A stretch of DNA of 50,168 nt from Escherichia phage vB_EcoS-DELF2, in sequence record NC_049832.1; one strand, given 5' to 3'. The position numbers and the translations under genes were made by a program. Below are positions 14,963-43,071 of this stretch, one piece after another (position 1 is the first letter of the stretch; the number at the start of each line of letters is the position of its first letter). The notes below the pieces were generated by a model. The model ran no database searches, had not been told where the DNA came from, and saw only the letters and a list, made by a program, of their open reading frames with translations.

Positions 14963-15429
14963 TTGGTGAGATATTTCACGCAGCTTCCGGCAGTTTCATT
15001 CCAGCCATCCTCAAAGAATACGCTATAGCATGTTGCCGAACGCTGGCGAATCTTAGATACAGTGCGCCACACCTTACGGCCCGAGTAACCAGTCAGCACG
15101 CGCATCCCTGGCAATAACTCACCCGACTTTCTCACCTTGATAGTCACATCAGCATCAAGCCCGAACGACTCAAGGCGAACAGGATTGACCATCTCAAACA
15201 TTCGCATAACTTCGTGATCTTCTTTCCACTCGCAGCCGCCGCTAGCCTTAACCGCTTCAACAAAATAACTCAGCTTATCAGTGAGTGAATCACCTTCGAA
15301 CGCCTCGATTGAGATAACCGTGTAGTGAGTGTACGCATGCCAGTGCGATCCGGTCTTGTGCTCAAACGCGAAGAATGACATTTCGCCATCAAGCTCATCT
15401 TTAGCCAGGAATACGGTAATGGTCGCCAT
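14959..15429 (-). CDS. hypothetical protein
   Basis: 156 aa ORF. Confidence 0.45.
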   Translation of the reverse strand: MATITVFLAKDELDGEMSFFAFEHKTGSHWHAYTHYTVISIEAFEGDSLTDKLSYFVEAVKASGGCEWKEDHEVMRMFEMVNPVRLESFGLDADVTIKVRKSGELLPGMRVLTGYSGRKVWRTVSKIRQRSATCYSVFFEDGWNETAGSCVKYLTK

Positions 15430-15431
15430 GA

Positions 15432-15626
15432 TTAAACCTCCGCAAAGTAAGTGTTAAAGCCTTTGAGTTTGTAGTCGCTGCCTACGCGCACCACGTTCCA
15501 GGTAAGGCCCGAGTGATATGCAAACATATCCTCAAGGTCGATCGTGATTTCCGTTCCTTTCTTGAACAGACCCTTTTCATGAGTTGAGTCTCGATGAACA
15601 ACCACTACGTCAATTTGCGTTTCCAT
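15432..15626 (-). CDS. hypothetical protein
   Basis: 64 aa ORF preceded by motif copy, TGgTATAGT and GAGGAAG RBS. Confidence 0.45.
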   Translation of the reverse strand: METQIDVVVVHRDSTHEKGLFKKGTEITIDLEDMFAYHSGLTWNVVRVGSDYKLKGFNTYFAEV

Positions 15627-15682
15627 CTTCGCTTCCTCATTCGTTGTCGATGGGATAACTATACCAGGTTATCCCGATCCGG

Positions 15683-15701
15683 TTTTAACAAAAAGTGCTA
15701 T
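15683..15701 (-). promoter_or_regulatory. palindrome motif copy with TGgTATAGT -10
   Basis: Read directly. Confidence 0.55.
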
Positions 15702-15958
15702 TTCATCAAAGTGAAGCAGCGAATTTTATTTGGCTTGAATAGGAATAGCTGGATGCCTTGCACCTTACCAAGACTGATCATCTCTACGCCAAACTGTTTA
15801 CGCACATACCGGACCAGCTCATCGGCTGGCGAACTCATCTGTAGTCCGAGGCGATAGAAACCGACAAACCCGTATGTTTCGGGGTTAAGCTGGAATGCCT
15901 CACCTGGATTGAGTTGCATCAATACACCTTTCAGGGCGTCATGCTTAATTTTGCTCAT
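15698..15958 (-). CDS. hypothetical protein
   Basis: 86 aa ORF. Confidence 0.4.
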   Translation of the reverse strand: MSKIKHDALKGVLMQLNPGEAFQLNPETYGFVGFYRLGLQMSSPADELVRYVRKQFGVEMISLGKVQGIQLFLFKPNKIRCFTLMK

Positions 15959-15960
15959 GA

Positions 15961-16536
15961 TTACTTCTCCTCATCCAGTAAATGTGAGCGGAATTGCTCG
16001 ACCAGCTTATTGAGATCGGATACCGAGATATTGCTACCTTCAAAATCCCTCAAATCGATTCTGAACGCCTCAACCTTCGCATTGAACACGTCGGCTATGC
16101 TCTTTCGCTTCCTACCTCTCTTGCCATGTTTAGCTTCGCCTATGGCCTTCTCTGCTTCCTCGCCTTCGAGTTCGGTTATGAATATCGTCACCCCGTCAAC
16201 CTGATCGCGGTTGATTCGCACAGATACGGCCTTATTATGCACCTTGAGCATGTGGCGCTTGATGATATTGGACACATACGACGCGGTGAGTCGTTCGAGC
16301 AACCAGGCTGATCGAGATGTGTACTCGTTAACGACTGCCTCATCAATCTGGTCATCGTTAAGTTCCACGCCATGAGTAGCCTTTACAATCTCGGCCTGCT
16401 CATTGACGTACACTTCAACCATTTGCTTTCCGGTGATTGAGAACTCATTCCCTGATTGGTGGATTTCAATCGCCTTTCGAATATAGTCCGGCAGGTTGAG
16501 TTCAAATTCTGTCACTTCTTTAAGCTGAGTTTTCAC
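15961..16536 (-). CDS. hypothetical protein (first gene of leftward early block)
   Basis: 191 aa ORF adjacent to divergent intergenic region. Confidence 0.45.
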   Translation of the reverse strand: MKTQLKEVTEFELNLPDYIRKAIEIHQSGNEFSITGKQMVEVYVNEQAEIVKATHGVELNDDQIDEAVVNEYTSRSAWLLERLTASYVSNIIKRHMLKVHNKAVSVRINRDQVDGVTIFITELEGEEAEKAIGEAKHGKRGRKRKSIADVFNAKVEAFRIDLRDFEGSNISVSDLNKLVEQFRSHLLDEEK

Positions 16537-17230
16537 TTGTCTATACCTCGTTGTCTATGGGTGTAACTTTCAACTTCGAAAAACATGTTACAGCTACAAA
16601 GTCAGGAGCGTCAATGTCTATAGCTGCATTTTTTATTTTTGTAACCAGTGCAACCGATGCAACCGACTTTTTCTATAAAAGTAAGCACATCTATTTATGC
16701 GCGCGGAATGGTATGTTTTTTATACTATGCATCACGAAATATATGCCACCCTCAAAAAATGCGGTTGCACCTATTACGCCGATTACATACCAATATATAA
16801 TATAATAAATAAATAAATATATATTATCTATCTTATTATTATATATAGATATTTTATTATCTATAGGCCTATCGATTCTCGGGCCACTTTGTAACACCCC
16901 TGATGGTATACAACTATTACGACAATTACAACTACCGCATAGACGAATAGCACGTTTTGCTAAAAATGGAGATTACCACCAGGCGAACTGGGTAACACTA
17001 AATCCTCCCTCTCACAATCATTGCAATCTAAGCAACAAATCAACCGACTGTTGCACACCATGCAATAATCACGTTTCATCATTCGCAATCAATCACAATC
17101 AAAATTATTCCAACTATTCCAGCATTGATGTAATAATGAGCAATTATTGGAATAGCATTTTTTGCTAACGACTGGACCAGGTTGGCAGGGTATAGTTCTG
17201 GCCATCAACCAATCAGAAGAGGAAGCAGCA
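16537..17230. repeat. AT-rich divergent intergenic region with iteron-like repeats and two motif copies lacking or displaced from -10
   Basis: TTGTCTAT x2, TGTAAC/GTTACA, ATATTATCTATC, inverted TATCTAT/ATAGATA; motif copies at about 16947 and 17152. Confidence 0.5.
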
Positions 17231-17416
17231 ATGAAATTAATTTGGTCACTATTCGACGGTTCAGGACTTGCTGGTCATGAACTGGCAAGGCAAGGTCACA
17301 AGGTGATGTGCTTCAACTTTGACGGAGCAGATCACGGAGATTACGCAAAGTACAACGCCAGGGTTGAGCATCCTAACATTGAGTATGTGAACGTCTTTAT
17401 TGATGAGAAGTTCTAA
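17231..17416 (+). CDS. C5-cytosine DNA methyltransferase-like, N-terminal fragment (motif I FDGSG) ending at in-frame TAA
   Basis: ATG at 17231 preceded by CAACCAATCAGAAGAGGAAG leader; TAA at 17414..17416 in same frame as downstream ORF. Confidence 0.35.
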   Translation: MKLIWSLFDGSGLAGHELARQGHKVMCFNFDGADHGDYAKYNARVEHPNIEYVNVFIDEKF

Positions 17417-17434
17417 CTTGATGCTATCGCGGGT

Positions 17435-17935
17435 GTGTATGGCAAGCCTGATTTCATTATGGCATTTCCTCCATGCACTGACCTGGCTGTTAGTGGCGCT
17501 GCTCACTTAGCAAGAAAGCGTGAGCGAGATCCGTTATTCCAGGAGAAGGCTGTTGCCACCGCCAGGATTGCCGCGAATATTGGCGACGCCCTGGGAGTGA
17601 CTTACATCATTGAGAATCCTGTGAGCGTCCTGTCATCTGCCTGGCGAAAACCGAATCACTCATTCAACCCCTGGGAGTATGGCGGCTATCTTCCTGAGAA
17701 TGACGCACACACCTGGTTCCCTATGTATATTGCGCCGCGCGATGCTTATCAGAAGAAAACTTGTCTTTGGACCTCGGACGACTTTGTCATGCCGGAGAGA
17801 AAACCTGTAAACCTGCCTGACGGGTACTCTGCGCAACACAGCAAGCTTGGCGGCAAGTCGGCAAAGACGAAGCTGATACGATCCCTGTCGCCGCGTGGAT
17901 TTTTCAAAGCGATCGCAAATAGCACTTTTTGTTAA
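17435..17935 (+). CDS. C5-cytosine DNA methyltransferase-like, C-terminal part (FPPC motif IV, ENP motif VI)
   Basis: Same frame as 17231..17416; catalytic Cys motif PPCTD; no target-recognition domain obvious. Confidence 0.45.
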   Translation: MYGKPDFIMAFPPCTDLAVSGAAHLARKRERDPLFQEKAVATARIAANIGDALGVTYIIENPVSVLSSAWRKPNHSFNPWEYGGYLPENDAHTWFPMYIAPRDAYQKKTCLWTSDDFVMPERKPVNLPDGYSAQHSKLGGKSAKTKLIRSLSPRGFFKAIANSTFC

Positions 17936-17937
17936 AA
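17919..17937 (+). promoter_or_regulatory. palindrome motif copy (ATAGCACTTTTTGTTAAAA) with TGgCATAAT -10 19 nt downstream
   Basis: Motif encodes the last residues NSTFC-stop of the methyltransferase ORF. Confidence 0.55.
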
Positions 17938-17995
17938 CTAGCTCGGTGCGATTTGGCATAATTACCTCATCGAAACGAGATTGAGGAAAAACAAA

Positions 17996-18181
17996 ATGGC
18001 ACGTCGCATCACTAAAGACCTTAAAGTTCTGAACAAAGAAAACGTAGTTAAAATCCTGGTTATTTGGGGATACAGCGAAGAATCAGCAAAGCAGAAGGTA
18101 GAGGCGGGTTACGACCTGGCTGTCAAGGCGATGCCTAACGACGATGCAAAAGGCATTGCAAACTATGTAGCATTCTTTTAA
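17996..18181 (+). CDS. hypothetical small protein
   Basis: GAGGAAAAA RBS before ATG 17996. Confidence 0.45.
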   Translation: MARRITKDLKVLNKENVVKILVIWGYSEESAKQKVEAGYDLAVKAMPNDDAKGIANYVAFF

Positions 18182-18196
18182 TTAACAGGCTAACAA

Positions 18197-18382
18197 ATGA
18201 AAACGAAATTAGTGCATAAATCAGAAATCAAGATCGGTGATACTGTGATTCACAACGGAGAACTTAAAACTGTTGGTAAGGAGTCGATAACCAAAGATGA
18301 ATTTATGGGTCTGTTGTTGTTCGGCGACTCATATCGCCTGGGTTATAAAATGGTTGAGCTTGTTGAAGATGTAAAATTCTAA
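18197..18382 (+). CDS. hypothetical small protein
   Basis: 61 aa ORF. Confidence 0.4.
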   Translation: MKTKLVHKSEIKIGDTVIHNGELKTVGKESITKDEFMGLLLFGDSYRLGYKMVELVEDVKF

Positions 18383-18401
18383 ATAGCACTTTTTGTTAAA
18401 C
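18383..18401 (+). promoter_or_regulatory. palindrome motif copy with TATAGT -10 and hairpin CCCCGA-N6-TCGGGG in spacer
   Basis: Read directly. Confidence 0.5.
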
Positions 18402-18457
18402 GCCCCGAAGTGAATCGGGGTATAGTGAACACATCAACCAATCAGGAGAATCACCAG

Positions 18458-18688
18458 GTGGCAATTAAACACACCGGATTAAAGAAAGCAATCCAGCGCG
18501 CCAATGATGAGGGATTCATCGTCTACCGCACACATTACGGTCACATGGGCGGGATTAAAGATCATCACACTAAGGTCGAGCTTGTCGACCTTTTGGATGA
18601 TTACGATACATTCCAGTATATCGCTACGTCTGACATAGAGGCGCAAGTGAAATACATCAACGACACAATTGATAGTTTCAGAGGGTAA
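18458..18688 (+). CDS. hypothetical protein (paralog of 18691..19071)
   Basis: AGGAG RBS then GTG; shares KKAIQRANDEGF-like N-terminus with next gene. Confidence 0.4.
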   Translation: MAIKHTGLKKAIQRANDEGFIVYRTHYGHMGGIKDHHTKVELVDLLDDYDTFQYIATSDIEAQVKYINDTIDSFRG

Positions 18689-18690
18689 TT

Positions 18691-19071
18691 ATGACAGATT
18701 CAAAACTTCAGGCAGCAATTGACCGCGCAAATGAGAAAGGTTTCACTGTTGAAATTTGCAATCGCTTGGTGGGCGGGATAATCCACCCCAGCAACCGAGT
18801 TGTTATCACTCAGCGCGATACAGGGATCAGTATCACGGATATATTCACCATTAAAGAACATCAGAGCATGATTTCTTACATCAATCGACATGTCGGATCG
18901 GTTGAGTTCGGGAGGCTGGATGGTGACGAGAAGGAGGCTATCATTGACAACCTTCTCGAAGAGGTCAGTCTCGCATTTGAAGAACGACCGGATAACGGAA
19001 CGACACGTTGGGATTGCGATAAGCTGGACGCAATAAACCGCATCCGTGAAATCCTGGAGGAAAAATTATGA
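18691..19071 (+). CDS. hypothetical protein (paralog of 18458..18688)
   Basis: QAAIDRANEKGF N-terminal motif. Confidence 0.45.
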   Translation: MTDSKLQAAIDRANEKGFTVEICNRLVGGIIHPSNRVVITQRDTGISITDIFTIKEHQSMISYINRHVGSVEFGRLDGDEKEAIIDNLLEEVSLAFEERPDNGTTRWDCDKLDAINRIREILEEKL

Positions 19072-19099
19072 TCGTATATATCTATACTGGAGGCATTGC

Positions 19100-22960: not shown

Positions 22961-22987
22961 AAAGGAGGCTAAGCCTCCTTTTTTTCG
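22961..22987. terminator. bidirectional terminator AAAGGAGGCT-A-AGCCTCCTTT plus T-run
   Basis: Between convergent plus block and spanin gene; spanin C-terminus overlaps hairpin. Confidence 0.65.
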
Positions 22988-23373
22988 TCCTTACGAAGTG
23001 AAAAATAAACCAGCAATAGACCGATAAAAACGAGAATCCAGCCAACGATAGCATCGTACCAGTTTTCCGGTTTTGTTACTGTGATGCTTTCAGCGTTAAC
23101 CGTGTTAGCCTTAATGGTTGACACTTCAATTGACTTCTTCAAGGAAGAGTCAATCTTTCCTACATTGGACTTCTCAACTTTAACATCTCGCTTATCTTCG
23201 GATTTTGCGGTTACTCCTGCTAATTGCTTTGTGTTCTCCTCTCCGATTTGTGCTGTAACTTCCGGTTTAGATCCGATTAAACCGCTCAGGGCAGATGCCG
23301 TCGAACAACCGGATAGGGAAATAACGCCAACAGCCACTGCAATCGCAATGCACGTTTTCTTCAGTTTCATCAT
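22969..23373 (-). CDS. unimolecular spanin (lipoprotein with C-terminal transmembrane helix)
   Basis: Signal peptide with lipobox LSGC; C-terminal [16 protein letters not shown]; downstream of endolysin. Confidence 0.65.
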
Positions 23374-23858
23374 AATTCCTTAACGCAATACGCGTATTCT
23401 TCAGCGCGTCGGTTCTTTAGTCCTCTAGACACTTCGCGCTTTTTGGTTTTTGGGTTGTAGTAGTATACCCATCGCCATAACTGATTGCACGCTTCCTTGT
23501 GCTTACTCTGATTTATTAGCTTAAGCATTGTAGAAGATCCGAACGCGCCAGTACCGACGTTGAAAGTGAAGCTGTACAGTGACGCGCGCATCGTTACCGG
23601 AATATCAACATTCACCTTTTTGTCAACGTATCGCTGAGCGACGCCGATATGTTTTATCAGCAATGCATCGCATTCTCGCTTAGTGTATTTCTTACCAGGT
23701 ATGACGTCCGGCCCGGTTATTCCGCTGCATACGGTAGGGACTCCGGCGATATCGTAATACACCTCGTATTCTATCCCTTCGATTCGTTCCAGCAGGGTAG
23801 GCGTCAACGTCAAAGCAGCCCCGATCGATGCGCCTATAACGTTATTTTTTAAGCTCAT
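23370..23858 (-). CDS. SAR endolysin (glycoside hydrolase family 24 lysozyme)
   Basis: N-terminal weakly hydrophobic Gly/Ala-rich signal-anchor-release segment, then lysozyme-like domain. Confidence 0.8.
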
Positions 23859-24073
23859 TATCTCCCCCTGATCTTAAGTGCCTTATTTAGATCGCCATCG
23901 TTTAACGCTTCCTGAATCGCCTTGCTATCACGATACTTCCAGTATGCGCCCCAAGCACCAAAAAGCAGAAAGCAAATGAATGTAGCGCCAGCAATATAAA
24001 TCTGCCCGGTCGCCGCCCCCACTAATGAAGCCCCGCCCGTGCTAGACGTAGCTGCGGTTAAAAATTCTTTCAT
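23858..24073 (-). CDS. holin (pinholin-like, two TMDs)
   Basis: Two hydrophobic segments, charged C-terminus; directly upstream of endolysin; ATG at 24073 (track start 24136 is a TTG). Confidence 0.6.
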
Positions 24074-24193
24074 AATCTCACCATATATTTTTTGAACAAG
24101 TGAGTTGATTTTAACCTTCAAATTTATTTTACACAACGCAAAAAGGCCAGCATGTAAATCATGCCAGCCTGTAAGGTGATGAATGCTATTGTT

Positions 24194-24370
24194 AATCTAT
24201 CTCAATAAATTCCAGGTAGTGACCGTTCAGAGGAACATGGATTGCTGAACCTCGCCCGTCGTAAATCTCAAATAATCCCCCACAGAAATCATAACCAACA
24301 CTATAGATCTGATTTACACGGAATGGAAGTGTCTTGGAGTCATTTCGGATGCACTTAACTAGCTTCATGA
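24194..24370 (-). CDS. hypothetical 59-aa protein (below track threshold)
   Basis: Preceded by diverged motif copy 24421..24440, CATAGT -10 and AAGAGG RBS. Confidence 0.3.
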
Positions 24371-24420
24371 TATAGCCTCTTTGTTTCGATGTGGTTACTA
24401 TGCCCGAATCCCTTCGGACG

Positions 24421-24440
24421 TTTTTATCAATTAGTGCGAT
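24421..24440 (-). promoter_or_regulatory. diverged palindrome motif (plus text TTTTTATCAATTAGTGCGAT) with CATAGT -10
   Basis: Same 19-nt spacing and AACCACATCGAAAC leader. Confidence 0.4.
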
Positions 24441-25582
24441 CCTGTCATTTCTGGACGATAGATGAAGCGACCTATTTCCCCAAACTGCTTATCGTAAACA
24501 ATTACAGCCGCCTGGCGATATGAGCGCCACCCTCCGCGTGCTGCGTATGCATCTTTCGCGCCTAACTGACCGTGCACTTCATCAATACCAAGCGAGTGCT
24601 CAGTGATTGTCTGGTGATGCCAGTGACCACTATGAGTATACACATACTTGCTCTCGCCGAAGTCTGATCGGAAATCTGCCGCCATTGCTGCAAGTCGCGT
24701 GTCTGCCTTTTTCATAGTGTGCCCGTGAGTGTATCCCAACAAGGTATTTCCCCAACGAGTCTTATGCAGAATCATAGGACTAACGTCAACGAATACTCGC
24801 GGCTCGTCTTCATAATATGCCGACATTGCAGCGCGTAGCCAAATCATCCCTGCCTGGTCGTGGTTCCCTTCGATAACCTGGACTTCGACTTCCTTGTGTT
24901 TCAGTAGCATTTTGTCGATAGCGCGACGAACAGATCTAATAGCTACATGCACCAATTTTGCATATCGTGAATCCTGATCCAGAACGTGACCACTTGCCGG
25001 GGTAACAGCATCAAGACCGTCCGAGTGAAGGAAGTCACCGCCGATTAAAAGAACGGCCTTCTCTGCGTTCGGAGCAATATCGATCGCGTAATTAAAGAAG
25101 TCGCTAAGCACTTTTTCCGCTACGTCGGTAGAGTAGTTCTCTCCACATTCATGCTTATGAGCAAGCGCGCCAATGTGAAGATCGAACACCGGGTATAGTG
25201 CCAGCTTGCCAATAGCGGTTGTAAGACCTTGCGATGTGAGTAGCTCAGTTGGCTTTGCTCGCGGCAAGTCTTCACAAAATGCAATGCGTGCAGCTTCCAT
25301 CATAGCTGCAATCTTCTCACGGTCCTGATCGGTCTTAACCCATCGCACGACCTCAGTCCCATCACCGCGAATCATTGTTGATGTGCCTTTTACCATGAAG
25401 CCTTCAGGAACGTTTTTAGCAACATGCTCATTGCCGTGAAAGTGGCCTTCTTTTGCCAATTTTGCGTGTCGAGCCTCAACAGTTCGAATATGCATACCGT
25501 ACTTTTCCGCGATCTCGCGAAGTGTAAGGCCGTTCATGCGCTCTTCGACAAGTTGCTCGGTAGTGATTTTAGCTTGTGACAT
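24431..25582 (-). CDS. metallophosphoesterase with N-terminal helix-turn-helix
   Basis: Calcineurin-like motifs GDFLHSD, GNHD, GHTHG, GHWHH; N-terminal HTH LTLREIAEKYGMHIRTVEARH. Confidence 0.7.
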   Translation of the reverse strand: MSQAKITTEQLVEERMNGLTLREIAEKYGMHIRTVEARHAKLAKEGHFHGNEHVAKNVPEGFMVKGTSTMIRGDGTEVVRWVKTDQDREKIAAMMEAARIAFCEDLPRAKPTELLTSQGLTTAIGKLALYPVFDLHIGALAHKHECGENYSTDVAEKVLSDFFNYAIDIAPNAEKAVLLIGGDFLHSDGLDAVTPASGHVLDQDSRYAKLVHVAIRSVRRAIDKMLLKHKEVEVQVIEGNHDQAGMIWLRAAMSAYYEDEPRVFVDVSPMILHKTRWGNTLLGYTHGHTMKKADTRLAAMAADFRSDFGESKYVYTHSGHWHHQTITEHSLGIDEVHGQLGAKDAYAARGGWRSYRQAAVIVYDKQFGEIGRFIYRPEMTGSH

Positions 25583-31522: not shown

Positions 31523-33370
31523 ATGGCTTTATATAGACGCGGCACTGCATCAATGGATGCAGACGGCACGGTTCACGGAACCGATACGAAATGGAAAGAT
31601 CAGCTTGCTCTGATTCGAGTCGGTGCAACTATCGTATTCCTGGAGCAACCAATTAAGCTGGCGGTAATCAGCGATATTGTGAGCGACACAGAGCTAAAGG
31701 CTATCTCTACGGATGGTCAGACTGCCGCTGACGGAAAGTATGTGATCCTGCTTAACGATTCACTGACTGTAAACGGATTAGCTCAAAACGTTGCTGAGAC
31801 ATTGCGTTACTACCAGAGCAAAGAAACTGAGATCGCTGCGGCTCTTGATATCATCAATCAGCTTGATATGGATAAACTTGAGCAAATACTTGCTGAGGTG
31901 AATAAGGCGAAATCTGATTCTCAAGCTGCGCAAAATCAGGCTGAATTAGCGCGTGACGCAGCCAACGCTGCACGCGATGAAACTAACTCAATCAAGAACC
32001 AGACTCAACAAATTGTTGACGGTGCTGTAGGTAGTATTAATGCAGCAAAGGATCAGGCTATTACTGATATCGGATCTAAGGAATCATCTGTCATCACTCA
32101 CATTGACACTGAAGAGGCGGCGGCCATTCAGGCAATCAATGATGCTAAAGGCGATCTATTCGGGTATGTTAATGATGCTCAGACTGCGGCGCAAACTGCA
32201 ACATCAGCAAAAAACGATGCCCAAGCAGCACGCGATGCAGCGGTTAGCGCCAAAGATGCGGCAGCGGTAAGTGCTCAGGAAGCTCAGGACGCAGCAAATA
32301 GCGTTAATGCTGACAATCTTTTAACTAAGGACGGTAATTTAGCTGGTCTTGAGGATAAATTAGAATCATGGAAAAACTTGAGGCCAGACGCCCCATTAGA
32401 GTTACTTAAAGATCCTGAAGGCAACATGGACGCAACTACTAAGGGTTGGGTTGAGAAAGGCCTAAAAGTAAACGAATGGTCTATTTATAAAAATCTAGAC
32501 TCTGAGCCGCCAAGCGGTTCCGATTCTTCAGGCGGCAGGATTGATTCAAAATTCAAGGTTGGTGAAGTTGATAAGTACAGATCCTCTTTCGAATTGCAGG
32601 GAGGTAATGAAATAGATATATGGACAAGGATAACAACAATCAATGACAGATATAAGCAGGGCGCGGCAACATGGGATTTCAAACTGGACGGAAAGTTGAT
32701 TTTTAACAAGGGTCTAACACCAAATGGAACTGGATACTCGCCAGGTAATACCTATTTGACATTAGCTAATACATGGATGAGTTCTCAGCACAGCGGTTAT
32801 ATTGGTCTAGTTGGTGGCGGCGTTGGTGTATCTAACGGAGGCTGGAGGAACTTTGTTTCTTTGGGAGCGCTTATTTTTCCAGATAGTACTCACCCGCAAG
32901 CGGTAATATCTCAGGTGTACGATTATGATATAGCTTCAGGTAATCAGCCAAACGGTGACATTATAAGGAATACATCGTTTAACGCTGAGAGCTACGACAT
33001 AACGTTTGGGAATAACTCAGGTACTGTCAACTATATATTTTCCAAGTCTCCAGTGTCAGATGAGAGACTTAAAAGCGACATAAGGGATATTGAAACAAGA
33101 TTGGCGCTTGACAATTTGATGAAAATGAAATACCGATCATTCACATACAATTATGACAAGGAGAAAACTGTAAGGAGAGGGTTCATAGCTCAACAGCTTA
33201 TGAGCATAGATAGTCAGTACGTTAGAAAGTACGGAAATATGAATGGGGAAGATTACACGTTATCACTTGATGAGAACGTTCTTTTGCTTGACGCTATAGC
33301 TGCGATACAGGAGCTTTCAAAGCAAGTATCTTCTCTAAAAGAAGAAATAAAATCACTTAAACAATCATAA
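31523..33370 (+). CDS. lateral tail fiber with C-terminal intramolecular chaperone (peptidase S74-like) domain
   Basis: Coiled-coil Ala/Gln-rich shaft; C-terminal SDERLKSDIRDIE...YRSFTYNYDKEK chaperone signature. Confidence 0.75.
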   Translation: MALYRRGTASMDADGTVHGTDTKWKDQLALIRVGATIVFLEQPIKLAVISDIVSDTELKAISTDGQTAADGKYVILLNDSLTVNGLAQNVAETLRYYQSKETEIAAALDIINQLDMDKLEQILAEVNKAKSDSQAAQNQAELARDAANAARDETNSIKNQTQQIVDGAVGSINAAKDQAITDIGSKESSVITHIDTEEAAAIQAINDAKGDLFGYVNDAQTAAQTATSAKNDAQAARDAAVSAKDAAAVSAQEAQDAANSVNADNLLTKDGNLAGLEDKLESWKNLRPDAPLELLKDPEGNMDATTKGWVEKGLKVNEWSIYKNLDSEPPSGSDSSGGRIDSKFKVGEVDKYRSSFELQGGNEIDIWTRITTINDRYKQGAATWDFKLDGKLIFNKGLTPNGTGYSPGNTYLTLANTWMSSQHSGYIGLVGGGVGVSNGGWRNFVSLGALIFPDSTHPQAVISQVYDYDIASGNQPNGDIIRNTSFNAESYDITFGNNSGTVNYIFSKSPVSDERLKSDIRDIETRLALDNLMKMKYRSFTYNYDKEKTVRRGFIAQQLMSIDSQYVRKYGNMNGEDYTLSLDENVLLLDAIAAIQELSKQVSSLKEEIKSLKQS

Positions 33371-33375
33371 AGAAA

Positions 33376-36218: not shown

Positions 36219-36449
36219 ATGAAAAAGTTAATCGCCATTATTGCTGCTGCATTTATCCTGACTGGTTGCGCTCAGAATCTTAAAAATGGAGACTGCGTTA
36301 CTTACGCTTACGGATCTTGCATGATGCGATTCGTTGACGGTAAGAAGGTTCCGGCTGGCGAAATCGATATGCGATTCAAAGGTCTGTCATCCGACGACGA
36401 TCAGGGTAACTTCAGCGGAAAGGTGTCAATAAAAACTAAAGAGTGGTAA
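36219..36449 (+). CDS. small lipoprotein, putative superinfection-exclusion factor (Cor/Llp-like)
   Basis: Signal peptide with lipobox LTGC; 76 aa; next to tail fiber/receptor-binding locus. Confidence 0.6.
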   Translation: MKKLIAIIAAAFILTGCAQNLKNGDCVTYAYGSCMMRFVDGKKVPAGEIDMRFKGLSSDDDQGNFSGKVSIKTKEW

Positions 36450-36451
36450 TT

Positions 36452-37408
36452 ATGGGACAAGGAATATACATAAATCTAAATGACGGTCGTCCGGCAATGG
36501 AGATAACCTCTGGACTTCGCGCCCCGTCATGGTGCGGACCAATACAAGCGGACGGGGTTGATTCATCTGGATCGGTTTTTGATTTTGGTCTGCAAATGAG
36601 TCCAGGGTCTACTGCTTTTTGCCTTCCATCTCAGGCTATCTACATAGACGATATGGATTACATCCCGGAGGTGTATTATTTGACCAGTTTTCAGAAGGTC
36701 AATGATTCAACCGGACGAATAACGGTAGGTAATTTTAACGGGCACGGTGGAAGGAGGATGAGATTTTATGGCAACTGTTACGAAATCCTCCCCGCTCAGG
36801 CTGGAAATCAGGGGATACTTGTTAACGATTCAACGAACTTCGCAGCGATACCGAATAACGCCAGATTGATGAGCGCTGCATTTGTTGGGGGGATTCAGGT
36901 TAACGGTCAGGCTCAGTTGCCAGTACAGGGCGTTCCTTTCGGTATGTGGGATAATCCAAACGTAACACTTGAATCTGACGGCAATACAATATGGTGCAGG
37001 GATGCAAACTATAACGGGATTGATGACGTTGGCGCGAGCGTATACGTTCAACTCGTAATATTTAATAACACCCCACCACCTCCTGGGCCTGGAATAACTA
37101 TGAGTAACCCTGCTGGCCAGATCGTTTTCTCAAGCGTTAGACGCCCCTTCGTTCTTGGCGGGACTATGGCGATAAATGATGGTTGGCAGTGGTGCGGTGG
37201 ATTTTTCCCAATACTGAGAACAGGTACGATATGCAGAGTTACAGGTGGATATAATAACATTCGATACAAGGGCGTTTGCATGAGCGGCGGTAACGTGAGA
37301 AGCGCACCAGGAACAAGGGTAGGTAACTATTCTACTCAGAGCGGCGCTCAATTTCCCTTCAATATAAACATTTCAATGCCAATTCCTTTCACTCCAAACA
37401 TGTATTAA
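36452..37408 (+). CDS. putative receptor-binding protein
   Basis: Gly/Asn-rich beta-type protein encoded between the lipoprotein and the J-like gene. Confidence 0.4.
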   Translation: MGQGIYINLNDGRPAMEITSGLRAPSWCGPIQADGVDSSGSVFDFGLQMSPGSTAFCLPSQAIYIDDMDYIPEVYYLTSFQKVNDSTGRITVGNFNGHGGRRMRFYGNCYEILPAQAGNQGILVNDSTNFAAIPNNARLMSAAFVGGIQVNGQAQLPVQGVPFGMWDNPNVTLESDGNTIWCRDANYNGIDDVGASVYVQLVIFNNTPPPPGPGITMSNPAGQIVFSSVRRPFVLGGTMAINDGWQWCGGFFPILRTGTICRVTGGYNNIRYKGVCMSGGNVRSAPGTRVGNYSTQSGAQFPFNINISMPIPFTPNMY

Positions 37409-37412
37409 AAAA

Positions 37413-37428
37413 GGGGCCGATCGGCCCC
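37413..37428. terminator. bidirectional terminator GGGGCC-GATC-GGCCCC
   Basis: Between convergent receptor-binding and J-like genes. Confidence 0.7.
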
Positions 37429-37434
37429 TTTCTG

Positions 37435-40400
37435 TTACCAGACACCAACAACCACTCGGCCCCCGTTAGGTAGGTTAACCGTGATCCCGTTATTGTTTAT
37501 CTGAACCGTATTGTTTGTCCCGTTGAATGCAAACGATCCGTTATCTGCATACAAAGCACCCCTTACGGTTGCGTTCATGAAGTAAGCTGCACCATTCTTG
37601 TTAATATGCCACCCTTGATTTCCATCCCAATTGTTAGACTGAATCGCGTTACCAATCATGGCGTTAGTAATAAATCCATCCTTGATGATCGCGCTACTTA
37701 GAATAACCTGGCCATTCTCAACAACGAATGGGTACTGAGTCTGACCATTCATTCCAGTCATGATGGCAAATCGTGATGCCTCAAACAAAATCTGCGCCTT
37801 AACCGCAGCTCCGGAACCAATCAGAGACATAGCCATGCCTGCACTGTATTCTTGGCCGTTATACTTCAGACCGAGCTTGACTCCGTACATTGCACCAGTC
37901 GAATCCGCATTGCTCCACGAATCAAGTTTTTGAGAAAGTGCCGCCTCATTATTCCCAAGCCTCGCGCTTAACGACAAGTCAGCTTGCGTTCTAGCCTCAG
38001 TCTCGTTTGCTATAGCCTCTCTGATATCAGTCAAACTTGCCTGGATATCATCATCAATCTCTGCCCTTAGTTGGTCAATTTCACGCGATAGCGCTCCAGT
38101 CTCAGTTGCGATAACTTCACGCAATTCGCTGTTGCTAGCGCTAATCTGATCGCCAAAACTCGCCTTCAATTGCTCGATCGCCGTCACTCGTGCCTGCGTC
38201 TCATCAGCAATAAGTTTCAGTGATTTCGTGTACTCAGCTTTTCGTTTTCCGTTCTCCTTCTTCATGTAGATCGCGTCTTTGTCATTGGCGAGAGCGTTTT
38301 CTATTGCTGCCTCTGCGTTAGCTGCGTTCTGCGCCGCGTTGTCGGTTGCGTTATCAACAAGCCACTCGTAGCCCGGAGAGTTTTCGATATCAACAGAAAT
38401 CTCTCCGATGATATCGTCTACGTTGGTCGATGCCATGCCCCTGACGAAATCAGTCCACTGAGAAACGTTACCGATCCTGTCAACCGTCCTTACCCGATAC
38501 CACACAATATTCCCACCCGGCATCGGTGAGTGATAATACTCATGCTGCGGGTACGGAATCAAAGAAAGCAAACTTGCGTTATCCACTGTTCCATCCGGTG
38601 ACTGTTGCAACTCTGTATAGGCCGTATCTCCAGAACCATCAGAGAACCCCCATTTTGTACGGATACCAAAAACAACATCATCCGTAGCTGTGAGGTTAAT
38701 CGGTCGACCCGGCTCACCTTGTTTGCCCGTCAGCGTCGCAGCTACGATATTTGACCATCCTGAAGTCGTACCGGAACCAGCTACGGAGCGAACGCGAACC
38801 TGATAGTTGCCAGCGTAAATACCCTCAACGTAAACCTCTTTGTTTGCTGTCTGCGGAACGTTTTGCCAGTTGCCGTTATCCTTTCTCCACTGTACGTCAT
38901 AGAAAACTGCGTACGGCACTTTATCCCAGCTAACAATCATCGTTTCTACGCTCATCCCCTGGACGATTCTCGACTCTGAGGACACTTGCACGTTTTCCGG
39001 TCTAGGGATCTGATCTGGTTCAACGATGCTCGTCGGTCGGTCGTCGATGTTAACTCCGTAATCAATCTCGTCGTACTTGTTAGGATCGTACTCCACCGCC
39101 GTGATTTTGTAGGTAAATTCCTCGTCATCATCGCCCTTATCGATTTTTGTCACGACGTACTGTTGTAGCGCAATGTCGGTGCGGTCGATAGCGAATACCG
39201 TGTTAGGCTTCACAGGAAAGCCAAAGCCAATGTTAACCTCTATAGTCTTACCATCCGCGCTAACACTTGAGATTGTGCGCTTCACGGGCTTGCCATCGGG
39301 CTTATTTACTATAATAAAGTCACCTGCGCGCGCATCCACACGGAACGGCAAGAAAATCTGGCTTCCAGACACTTCAAGCAAGCGCCCTGATAGGTTCATA
39401 GTCAAGTTGCTTGACCAGAAGTTGTCGGCTATTGCCACAACATCACCTATTGTCGGGATCATGCCCTCAAGCCCGGTCGCGAAGTTTACCGTAGTGCTGC
39501 GAAGGTTGGTCTTCAGAATCCATCGCCCTCGTCGGTTAGCCTCGCTTCGACGCGTGCAACCTATCGCTGTAATGCTGGTTACGTTATTACCAAACCGCAG
39601 AGTCGCCTCACGATCGAATACTGGCTCAACGTCCTGTTGATACATGTTTTGTTCGTCGTCAAACATCACGTTACACGTCGTGTACATACTCTTTTCGCTT
39701 GCGAACGTATAGGAGAAGTCACCATTAACAACGTTGTCGTTAGTGAAGATGTACGCAGGCTCACGCGGTCTGTCGATGATTACCGAGATGCTTTCACCAT
39801 TCCAGAAGCTCATACCACGGAATATTGAGCAAATATCTCGAATAACCTTGTACGCATCAGTCTGTGACTGAATTATCACGTCGCAAAGGTATCGAGGCTC
39901 CGTACCGCCTTTCCCGTCAGGAACCATCTGGTCGCAATATTGCGCCGCCTCATATAGCGCCCATTTATCGACAGATATTCCAAGCTCTTTCTGATCCAGC
40001 CCATAACGCTGATTAATCATCAGGTCGTAAAGCACCCAAGCCGGGTTATTCGTCCACGCCTTCTTAAAAGTGCCATCCCAATTTCCGTTATAAGTTCGTG
40101 ACTCCGGATCGTAGTTTGATGGAACGTTTACAATCTTCCATCGCTTACGAATTGAGATCGTAGGTAACTGGTTTGGGAACATCTTCGAATCAAACTCGAC
40201 AAAAAGAAGACCAGTCAGCGGGTAACGGAATTTGGCATCAATCACCTCGGCATAGCTCTTTACCTGAATCGCGTCAACAACGTTCGAGTCGTTAGAGTCT
40301 GGAGTTTTCCTAACCACTCTGAATATCACCTGATTGTTGAAGTTAGGTAGGTTTATACGTCTGCTTCGATCGTAACCTGACATTGTTTTACCTTCGATTA

Positions 40401-41561: not shown

Positions 41562-42292
41562 AATTTAAGATCCTTATGGCGAACAATTAAAACAGTATGA
41601 TCCTGATACCAGCCGGAATAGATATCACGTCGCGAAAGTTTGCCAAAGGCGTGATGCAAGATCTGATTATCACCCAGGTAAATCCCTGCGTGGTTCCATA
41701 CCGGAACATTTTGCCCTATCTGCATGATTACCATATCCCCGAATGATGGGTTATTCTGATCTGGAATCTCAACGAATCCATCTTGCTTGTAATAATCCTG
41801 ATAGAGATTAATTCCGTACTCCGGTTTCCACCATTCAAAATTCAATCGGCGATCGCGTAACTCTACGCCGTGCTCTTTGTGCCACGCCATAACAAGACCG
41901 TAACAGTCGAATGATCCTAATGACCACGGACGACCAATCAGAGGTAATTTCTCTGGCTTCACAAATCGCATATCTCCTTCCGGTACGCTAACAATAATCC
42001 AGGTCACTTCCATCTCATTACACATGCACGTATCGTGAGCGCTGGGAAGAGTTGTAGCTCCGTCCCCGGTGTGGCTGTGGACAATTGCGATCGTGGTTGA
42101 GTCAGCGTCGTCCTCAATACATGCGTATTGCACTGCGTCCATCATGAAGTGATTATCAGGATCGCGATGTACATTATCAACGCGATGGTATTTTTGCACT
42201 CGGCCCTTTTGGGTGACTACCCCGCAGCATTCGCGTGGGTATTCTTCCTGAGCGTGAGTCATAATTTCAAGTTTAATTTTTGCACTAATCAT
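41558..42292 (-). CDS. tail assembly protein (lambda K-like; JAB/MPN metalloprotease plus NlpC/P60 domains)
   Basis: JAMM motif HSHTGDGATTLPSAHD; NlpC/P60 Cys-His (DCYGLV...H); ATGA overlap with upstream gene. Confidence 0.85.
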   Translation of the reverse strand: MISAKIKLEIMTHAQEEYPRECCGVVTQKGRVQKYHRVDNVHRDPDNHFMMDAVQYACIEDDADSTTIAIVHSHTGDGATTLPSAHDTCMCNEMEVTWIIVSVPEGDMRFVKPEKLPLIGRPWSLGSFDCYGLVMAWHKEHGVELRDRRLNFEWWKPEYGINLYQDYYKQDGFVEIPDQNNPSFGDMVIMQIGQNVPVWNHAGIYLGDNQILHHAFGKLSRRDIYSGWYQDHTVLIVRHKDLKL

Positions 42293-43071
42293 TGATTTTT
42301 CCTCTGTAGTGAAGCGACAGCGCAACCGCCAAAATCCAGTTCATTGTTTGCGCCGAATCTCAGGCGGCAGGCCGTTACCGTACCTGGGCAGAAATCCAAA
42401 GCAGGATCGTCTACCGGATTATTGTCTTTGTCAAAATAACCGTTTTGCCCGTTGTATCCGCAGCCTTTCCCGGTTTTATACCATCCCCGCTGCGCCCAAT
42501 AGCAAACGCTTTGCGTTAGTCGAGACGGGATCATGATGCCATCCATATCATACGGCGACGTGAGATCGAATCGGGCGACGCTCTTATCGACATAGCTCGG
42601 GCGTTCGATATAGTATACCAGTTTGCGGTAAGCGCCGTCAGCTATTGAGCCGTCAGGTTGAATTAAGTCCTTTTGAGTGATCCAGATTGTCACCTTCGCC
42701 TGCATCAATCCGTTATATGCGCGAATCATTGCCGACACTCTGCTATCAATGTTCGCCACCGTCAACTGTGGTTTTGTTGCCTTGCCGGAACTATCAAACG
42801 AGATCCCGGATATGCCGAACGGGCGCGCTCCATATTGCTCCCCACGGAATGTAATTTCTTTCGGCGGCAGCGTTCCAGTTTGCTGGGCCTGCATGATTTC
42901 CTCTGGAGTGTACTGGATGTTCTCTCCGTGGAATCGATACACCTGAGCGCCGAACTTGCTACCATCAACTTCAATAAGGGTGATTATCTCCCCTGGATAC
43001 AGTGACTGAAGGCAGTTATGAAACAGGCTCCTTCCGCTTTCTTCATCATAAAGTTTTTTGTTTTCGCTCAT
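42289..43071 (-). CDS. minor tail protein (lambda L-like)
   Basis: C-terminal Cys cluster; AAGAGGAA RBS before ATG 43071. Confidence 0.7.
   Translation of the reverse strand: MSENKKLYDEESGRSLFHNCLQSLYPGEIITLIEVDGSKFGAQVYRFHGENIQYTPEEIMQAQQTGTLPPKEITFRGEQYGARPFGISGISFDSSGKATKPQLTVANIDSRVSAMIRAYNGLMQAKVTIWITQKDLIQPDGSIADGAYRKLVYYIERPSYVDKSVARFDLTSPYDMDGIMIPSRLTQSVCYWAQRGWYKTGKGCGYNGQNGYFDKDNNPVDDPALDFCPGTVTACRLRFGANNELDFGGCAVASLQRKNQ

Follow-up and report, generated by a model that had tools for sequence, protein, structure and literature searches.

A T1-type lysis cassette in Escherichia phage vB_EcoS-DELF2: a holin, a predicted signal-anchor-release endolysin and a unimolecular spanin

The lysis module of phage T1 has been termed a combination of pinholin and signal-anchor-release (SAR) endolysin together with unimolecular spanin (u-spanin) in the available portions of three papers (PMC6139136, PMC11447400, PMC13164509), and the pinholin classification of T1-type holins is already in the literature. 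The endolysin, gp12, is listed there as a predicted SAR endolysin (accessible text of PMC11447400 and PMC6139136), and the spanin, gp11, is the prototype unimolecular spanin. In the part of PMC6139136 that is open to us, gp11 is described as complementing lambda RzRz1, and its LSGC lipobox as replaceable by AWAC, with an AWAS variant assayed alongside. Among the T1 lysis proteins, experimental support in the literature searched exists for the spanin only, and no experiments on gp12 or gp13 were found there.

The window analysed here is the whole stretch of 50,168 nucleotides from Escherichia phage vB_EcoS-DELF2 (sequence record NC_049832.1). Over 42.8 of its 50.2 kb it can be aligned to the T1 genome at 80–94% identity, with which it is collinear but permuted and reverse-complemented. 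An earlier note on this DNA had assigned it to the T1-like phages, an assignment borne out both by this alignment and by the gene-for-gene orthologues described below. The features of the lysis region and its immediate surroundings are as follows.

24368..24192, minus strand: DUF7244 (SH3-clan) gene, 58 aa, orthologue of T1 gp14 (PF23896, E=3.2e-28), outside the cassette
24144..24170, minus strand: intrinsic-terminator-like hairpin from a terminator scan, with an 11-bp stem containing 6 GC pairs, then TTTTTGCG
24073..23858, minus strand: holin gene, 71 aa, with an ATG start and GGTGAG ahead of it
23858..23370, minus strand: endolysin gene, 162 aa
23373..22969, minus strand: spanin gene, 134 aa from the first ATG or 133 aa from the second ATG (23370)
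22961..22981, both strands: bidirectional intrinsic terminator with a 9-bp stem and the spanin stop codon in its loop

A check of the open reading frames places the three-gene cassette at 22969–24073, exactly the limits given in the earlier note, and the overlapping stops and starts that it described are found at both junctions. The holin stop and the endolysin start have one base in common (TAATG), and at ATGATGA the endolysin stop overlaps the spanin start, by 4 nt (ATGA) if the spanin begins at its first ATG and by 1 nt (TGATG) if it begins at the second. Of the two, the second ATG (23370) has the better spacing from the AAGGA Shine-Dalgarno sequence, and it is the counterpart of this second ATG that serves as the annotated spanin start in T1. 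These overlapping stop and start codons suggest that translation of the lysis genes is coupled. All three genes are on the minus strand, a point on which the earlier note is silent.

Each of the three proteins has a full-length match among the PHROG profiles: the holin to phrog_2877 (E=4e-38), the endolysin to phrog_7 (E=2.8e-50) and the spanin to phrog_1804, 'Rz-like spanin' (E=9e-48). Judged from their sequences, the lysis genes are real and lie far beyond chance. No other-frame minus-strand ORFs of at least 30 aa occur inside the endolysin or spanin genes. As a candidate for an embedded o-spanin-like frame, a 30-aa ORF with a TTG start (23994..23902) within the holin gene was considered; it has no lipobox and was judged to be a chance occurrence.

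A homology search against the T1 lysis proteins, put forward as a check in the earlier note, gives identities of 70/71 residues between the holin and gp13 (98.6%), 159/162 between the endolysin and gp12 (98.1%) and 105/134 between the spanin and gp11 (78%). The divergence from T1 is mostly synonymous in the holin and endolysin and less so in the spanin, with dN/dS values of 0.015, 0.024 and 0.21, respectively, indicating purifying selection. The 29 differences between the two spanins comprise 28 substitutions and one N-terminal gap position, and are found mainly in the periplasmic segment and the transmembrane domain (TMD), where T1 has one extra Cys. Nothing was found that speaks against gene-for-gene orthology to T1; the weak points of the overall reading concern mechanism only.

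Relatives of these genes are abundant. A tblastn search with the holin matches 825 phage records, nearly all of them over the full length, and the features of the lysis proteins discussed below are kept in eight Drexlerviridae phages, down to 34–37% identity. The lysis region (1301 nt) has 99.5% DNA identity with that of the Tunavirus phages JMPW1, vB_EcoS_SH2, IME167 and phi2013. The endolysin and spanin proteins of JMPW1 are 100% identical to those of DELF2, and the holin of the type found in JMPW1, vB_EcoS_SH2, IME167 and phi2013 differs from that of DELF2 by one substitution, L25I; the count for the L25I change is 0 of 58 near-identical phage records, all 58 of which are at 98.6% identity. 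On these comparisons the DELF2 cassette is already known, being virtually identical to those in deposited Tunavirus genomes, and it is an ordinary one because of this near-identity to known genes of T1 and its relatives. We conclude that it is very probably the lysis cassette of a Tunavirus, a T1-like siphophage of E. coli and Shigella, gene-for-gene orthologous to T1 13-12-11, whose products would break down the three envelope layers of the Gram-negative cell one after another.

The cassette is bounded on both sides. Its 3′ boundary is the terminator at 22961..22981, which is common to the convergent genes, and a terminator is annotated at the equivalent place in T1. Its 5′ boundary is the hairpin at 24144..24170, ∼70 nt upstream of the holin start. 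The same hairpin sequence is present in T1, and all eight phages compared have an equivalent GC hairpin with a T-run 55–85 nt upstream of the holin, whatever gene precedes it (a kinase or an exonuclease, for example); in Snook and AKS96 it is an annotated terminator. The presence of terminators on both sides suggests a discrete transcription unit. A scan of the minus strand between the upstream terminator and the holin gave no sigma-70-like promoter above threshold. An arrangement TTGTGT-17-TAAAAT (8/12, identified by eye) in the holin leader, which recurs in T1 with one spacer change, is not claimed as a promoter. Expression of the cassette would then call for either read-through or an unrecognised promoter.

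The position of this 5′ boundary bears on the status of the DUF7244 gene that precedes it. Such standalone SH3 proteins have been proposed as auxiliary lysis components in a 2026 paper (PMC13164509), and the SH3-like protein could on this basis be a fourth member of the cassette, a detached cell-wall-binding module that acts with the endolysin. The family match itself is strong (E=3.2e-28), 39 of 42 Tunavirus genomes have the order exonuclease-SH3-holin-endolysin-spanin, and 188 of 522 Drexlerviridae carry the gene, always adjoining the lysis genes (PMC13164509). The published proposal, however, is founded on co-localisation only, and the strong terminator at 24144..24170 separates the DUF7244 gene from the holin, as does its equivalent where a kinase or exonuclease gene takes the place of DUF7244. 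Three of the eight cassettes compared, those of egaa, Snook and ESP2949-1, have the three lysis genes but lack this one. Nor does its protein contain a signal or a hydrophobic segment; lacking an export signal, and with a pinholin as the holin, it could presumably enter the periplasm only after the envelope has broken. The synonymous divergence from T1 also differs, with a dS of 0.05 for the DUF7244 gene against 0.33–0.63 for the lysis genes, a contrast that points to a separate history and a recombination boundary near the holin start. We consider it unlikely that DUF7244 belongs to the cassette, and the terminator upstream of the holin, together with the missing export signal, tempers the proposal that this protein is a component of the lysis module. 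The three-gene cassette is the unit considered in what follows, with topology (TMD, lipobox and SAR segments) assigned by hydropathy and motif scripts and by conservation in the eight phages.

The endolysin matches the Pfam family Phage_lysozyme (PF00959, E=3.8e-33), and is by homology a GH24, T4-type muramidase orthologous to T1 gp12. Its closest relatives of known structure are the phage 21 endolysin R21 (3HDE, E=7e-34; 3HDF) and RrrD of DLP12 (4ZPU), both with E values of about 1e-33, and the alignment to R21 and RrrD reaches into the N-terminal segment. The earlier note had named loss of the lysozyme catalytic residues as evidence against its reading; they are present, with E27, D36 and T42 aligned on E35, D44 and T50 of R21 as the E-x8-D-x5-T triad. 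This triad is invariant among the eight Drexlerviridae phages, whose endolysins fall to about 50% identity. Homology thus establishes both the fold and the triad of the endolysin.

A weakly hydrophobic, signal-anchor-release N-terminus had also been claimed for this protein, and the sequence agrees with the claim as a prediction. The chain begins MSLK, so that a single basic residue, K4, is followed by 19 uncharged residues (5–23) and then ERIE; the uncharged segment has a mean Kyte-Doolittle hydropathy (KD) of 1.13 and is 47% Gly, Ala, Ser or Thr. A published description of SAR domains has one to three basic residues ahead of a weakly hydrophobic stretch that is free of charge and is often overlooked by hydropathy programs, and names release by a pinholin as the decisive test (PMC9239132); the N-terminus of the DELF2 endolysin agrees with this description in its sequence. 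A charge-free stretch of 17–19 residues following a basic residue is present in all eight endolysin homologues, even as the sequence itself drifts.

Alternatively, the same N-terminus might be a Sec signal peptide that is cleaved off, or an extension that stays in the cytoplasm, the lysozyme being soluble and dependent on holin holes for access to the wall. Its hydropathy is only 1.13, lower than that of the RrrD SAR domain (1.39), only one basic residue stands ahead of the segment, and the segment contains a proline (Pro20). A more distant relative, the 146-residue gp19 of phage P22 (2ANV, E=1.6e-7), has no N-terminal extension; its alignment begins at gp19 residue 10 and endolysin residue 21. 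Of the solved relatives, the SAR endolysins R21 and RrrD are nevertheless the nearest, with a margin of 25 orders of magnitude, and the catalytic Glu lies 4 residues past the segment, the same as in R21. By inspection, no A-x-A-type cleavage site follows a normal h-region, and the uncharged character of the segment is retained in the 8 homologues although its sequence is not. The listing of gp12 as a predicted SAR endolysin, in what is available of PMC11447400 and PMC6139136, agrees with these observations. A non-SAR endolysin is very improbable on this evidence, and we regard SAR behaviour as well predicted. The four cysteines of the protein are at positions 44, 63, 123 and 158, with none in residues 1–23; the lack of Cys in the SAR segment excludes disulfide caging of the kind seen in P1 Lyz, and refolding of the R21 type is likely.

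The holin is, from its profile match and alignment, an orthologue of T1 gp13 and a member of the T1-type holin family (PHROG 2877), the phrog_2877 match spanning holin residues 1–71 of the 71-position profile. In Pfam and NCBIfam it has no family match beyond a sub-threshold one to DUF3262. An uncharged stretch of 42 residues (4–45) is followed by a highly charged C-terminal tail (46–71). Within this stretch, residues 25–45 form a strong TMD (KD 1.57), preceded by a segment (4–24) that has a KD of 0.63 and is 76% Gly, Ala, Ser or Thr. The two-segment pattern is kept in the eight phages, with Gly14, Phe38 and Gly42 invariant together with a tail motif, DSKA...AL...G. The partner gene, adjoining and overlapping that of the holin, is that of the predicted SAR endolysin. 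Two further possibilities at the N-terminus were discarded: a dual-start (antiholin) motif, there being a single Met, and an in-frame upstream TTG (24136) as the holin start, which sits in the AT-rich leader and lacks an evident Shine-Dalgarno sequence.

The description of this protein in the earlier note, as a pinholin-like holin with two TMDs, holds as an analogy drawn from topology. It is a holin with one strong TMD; the other segment (4–24) is only weakly hydrophobic, and no homology links the protein to S21, the pinholin of phage 21. The phage 21 holin S family (PF04971) gives no match at E≤1 in eight T1-type holins, compared with E=2e-35 for EssD as a control, and an alignment of T1-type holins against EssD and S21 has an hhalign probability of 0.5%, indicating no relation. 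Since the holin has no sequence relation to the phage 21 family, the label pinholin can be applied to it only by analogy; as such it seems reasonable, given the topology and the SAR partner, and follows literature usage, but it does not denote family membership. The functional class, with S21 68 as its prototype, is defined by two TMDs (N-in/C-in), TMD1 being SAR-like and weakly hydrophobic, by a SAR endolysin as partner, and by nanometre-scale holes that depolarise the membrane without letting folded endolysin through. The first segment of the DELF2 holin is, on its hydropathy, too weakly hydrophobic for a confident TMD label.

How that segment is read decides between two views of the holin. 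It may not be a pinholin at all but a protein with a single TMD (∼25–45, N-out/C-in) and a periplasmic N-terminus, forming large holes or plainly depolarising the membrane. SAR endolysins can work with holins other than pinholins, as in P1. That they are not confined to pinholins is likewise indicated by the report entitled 'Phage N4 uses a SAR endolysin-holin system', as far as its available text goes. One TMD is what the records themselves report, the T1 RefSeq note giving the holin a 'single transmembrane domain' and the note on the AKS96 homologue recording 1 TMD. Segment 1 has a low KD (0.63), residues 4–22 give a Hessa sum (unweighted) of about +5.6 kcal/mol, and in the homologues from the Rogunavirinae (AKS96 and Sf12) Asp residues flank both ends of a 16-residue first segment; the missing homology to S21 would also fit. 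On the other hand EssD of DLP12, a 71-aa homologue of S21 and thus an established pinholin relative, has an equally weak TMD1 (KD 0.70) ahead of its TMD2 (KD 1.44), and 42 uncharged residues in a row suffice for a helical hairpin. Segment 1 stays uncharged across homologues of 34–99% identity in spite of sequence drift. Two TMDs are predicted for the T1 holin in the TLS paper (PMC11447400), and Kongari et al. class all but two of the T1gp11-family cassettes as pinholin plus SAR endolysin (PMC6139136, in its accessible part). A single-TMD, non-pinholin holin is a doubtful reading on balance, and 'pinholin-like' is kept as an analogy.

There is about an even chance that the T1-type holins (PHROG 2877) represent an independently evolved pinholin family that mimics the S68 design of phage 21 while being unrelated to it in sequence, with a SAR-like TMD1, a pore-forming TMD2 and a charged C-tail within 71 aa, and that, given the terminators on both sides of the cassette, lysis timing in the Drexlerviridae might be set in part by read-through of a terminator or by a promoter not yet recognised.

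The third protein is, by full-length alignment, a unimolecular spanin orthologous to T1 gp11. Membership of the T1gp11 u-spanin family has been set at 40% identity or more to a member across 40% or more of the length (Kongari et al. 2018), and the 78% identity of the DELF2 spanin to gp11 over its full length places it in that family. In Pfam and NCBIfam it has no family match. The combination of a lipoprotein signal with a transmembrane helix at the C-terminus in one polypeptide, which the earlier note had claimed, is recovered by the hydropathy and motif scripts. The N-terminus consists of a basic n-region, MMKLKK, a 13-residue h-region and the lipobox LSGC, with Cys23 as the predicted lipidated residue and Ser at +2. 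Ser at the +2 position of a lipoprotein permits sorting to the outer membrane. At the other end, residues 108–126 form a strong predicted TMD (KD 2.56; Hessa sum −2.7), followed by a basic tail, RKDEKKEA. All eight homologues retain the G-C-S sequence, the TMD near the C-terminus and the basic tail behind it.

The only cysteines of the spanin are at position 8, in the signal peptide, and position 23, in the lipobox, so that the periplasmic segment has none; periplasmic Cys residues occur in no u-spanin, according to the portion of PMC6139136 available. The same portion gives the periplasmic domain of gp11 as predicted to be β-rich, and records that all but two of the T1gp11-family members belong to pinholin plus SAR-endolysin cassettes (Kongari et al.). 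A single-sequence AF2 model of the DELF2 spanin (pLDDT 57) contains helices at residues 3–20 and 103–133, of which only 103–133 is above pLDDT 70; the periplasmic part has pLDDT below 50 with no strands called, and for that domain the model is uninformative. From the lipid anchor to the TMD there are ∼84 residues, which would span ∼28 nm if fully extended. Such a length would be just enough to cross the periplasm, and would fit a protein that folds after removal of the wall and pulls the membranes together.

Taken together, these assignments suggest a course of lysis in three steps. The holin would build up in the inner membrane until it triggers at a set time and collapses the membrane potential. 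By analogy with S68 of phage 21, the strong TMD2 may form pinholes once the weak, SAR-like TMD1 has left the bilayer. The SAR segment would keep the endolysin, exported beforehand by the Sec pathway, tethered in the inner membrane and inactive; depolarisation would release the enzyme, allowing it to refold in the manner of R21 and cut the glycan strands by means of E27, D36 and T42. The spanin, with a lipid on the lipobox Cys and directed to the outer membrane by virtue of Ser +2, would have its C-terminal TMD in the inner membrane, and its anchorage in both membranes implies that one polypeptide threads the peptidoglycan mesh. With the wall degraded, the spanin would draw the two membranes together and fuse or disrupt them, releasing the virions; the fusion mechanism is a model.

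The value of these results is mainly in correct annotation: the window is a Tunavirus genome, and its lysis genes are now identified. With T1 gp11 as the prototype u-spanin, and with predictions behind the pinholin and SAR labels of T1 gp13 and gp12, the cassette is a convenient, though not a new, experimental substrate.

Comparison with T1 itself shows the closest agreement. T1 genes 13, 12 and 11 (NC_005833, 42878–43982) match those of DELF2 in order, lengths (71, 162 and 133 aa) and junctions. In T1, too, the terminator covers the spanin stop and the hairpin lies upstream of the holin gene. A difference is found further upstream, where the HNH gene 15, located in T1 between the exonuclease gene and gp14, is missing from the DELF2 window.

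The lysis genes of phage 21 and its relative DLP12 offer a more mixed comparison. R21 and RrrD are true homologues of the DELF2 endolysin, with the same triad and a Cys-free, SAR-type N-terminus. The holins S21 68 and EssD resemble that of DELF2 in having 71 aa (EssD), a weak TMD1, a strong TMD2 and a charged C-tail, but are unrelated to it in sequence, and the DELF2 protein has neither a charged loop between its two segments nor a dual-start motif. The spanin of phage 21 and DLP12 is an embedded, two-component Rz/Rz1 pair, whereas that of DELF2 is unimolecular. The Rz/Rz1 pair of lambda is likewise last in its lysis cassette, and likewise spans the periplasm between a lipoprotein anchored in the outer membrane and a TMD in the inner membrane; it does so with two polypeptides, in contrast to the one polypeptide of DELF2, which has no periplasmic Cys or coiled coils and no sequence similarity to the lambda proteins.

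Evolutionary rates relative to phage T1 are uneven across 22969-24368, the region that holds the lysis cassette and the gene preceding it. The features considered here are as follows.

24192-24368, minus strand: DUF7244 (SH3-clan) gene, 58 aa, orthologue of T1 gp14
24144-24170, minus strand: GC-rich hairpin and T-run, upstream of the holin gene
23902-23994, minus strand: 30-aa ORF with a TTG start, in another frame within the holin gene; hydrophobic, with a basic tail
22961-22981, both strands: bidirectional intrinsic terminator, whose loop carries the TAG stop codon of the spanin gene

Measured against T1, the DUF7244 gene has a dS of 0.05, and the lysis genes have dS values of 0.33-0.63 and dN/dS values of 0.015 (holin), 0.024 (endolysin) and 0.21 (spanin). 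The leader upstream of the holin gene, 98% identical to that of T1, groups with the DUF7244 gene as low-divergence sequence, and this step in divergence from the DUF7244 gene and leader to the lysis genes suggests that a recombination boundary lies close to the start of the holin gene.

The lysis cassette lies directly downstream of the DUF7244 gene on the minus strand of the window, with a strong terminator between that gene and the holin gene. The DUF7244 protein has been proposed to be an auxiliary lysis component (PMC13164509, 2026); that of the window has neither a signal segment nor a hydrophobic segment. In each of the eight Drexlerviridae phages compared, the window included, a GC-rich hairpin and T-run is found 55-85 nt 5' of the start of the holin gene, irrespective of which gene comes before. 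No convincing promoter was found between the upstream hairpin and the holin gene.

Holin codon 25 (window 24001) encodes Ile, whereas the residue is Leu in T1, in Tunavirus JMPW1 and in 58 of 58 near-identical phage records. The substitution is conservative and falls where the two hydrophobic segments meet. The ORF at 23902-23994, which lacks both a lipobox and supporting evidence, is probably a chance occurrence.

The physical termini of T1 fall at window ~16947-17209, so the window represents a T1-like genome assembled in permuted form and as the reverse complement. Four stretches have no T1 match: 14964-16946, 17210-19088, 32352-33372, opposite T1 tail-fibre gene 26, and 36270-37630, opposite the T1 cor and membrane-protein genes. 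The window yielded no tRNA genes.

The terminator at 22961-22981 is common to the spanin gene and the convergent plus-strand genes; T1 likewise has a bidirectional terminator at the spanin stop, shared with convergent genes. Unlike T1, the window lacks HNH endonuclease gene 15 and the terminator preceding it (T1 41950-42545). At the corresponding site (24405-24445) the DUF7244 gene follows almost directly after the exonuclease gene, the same arrangement as that reported for phage KanT1.
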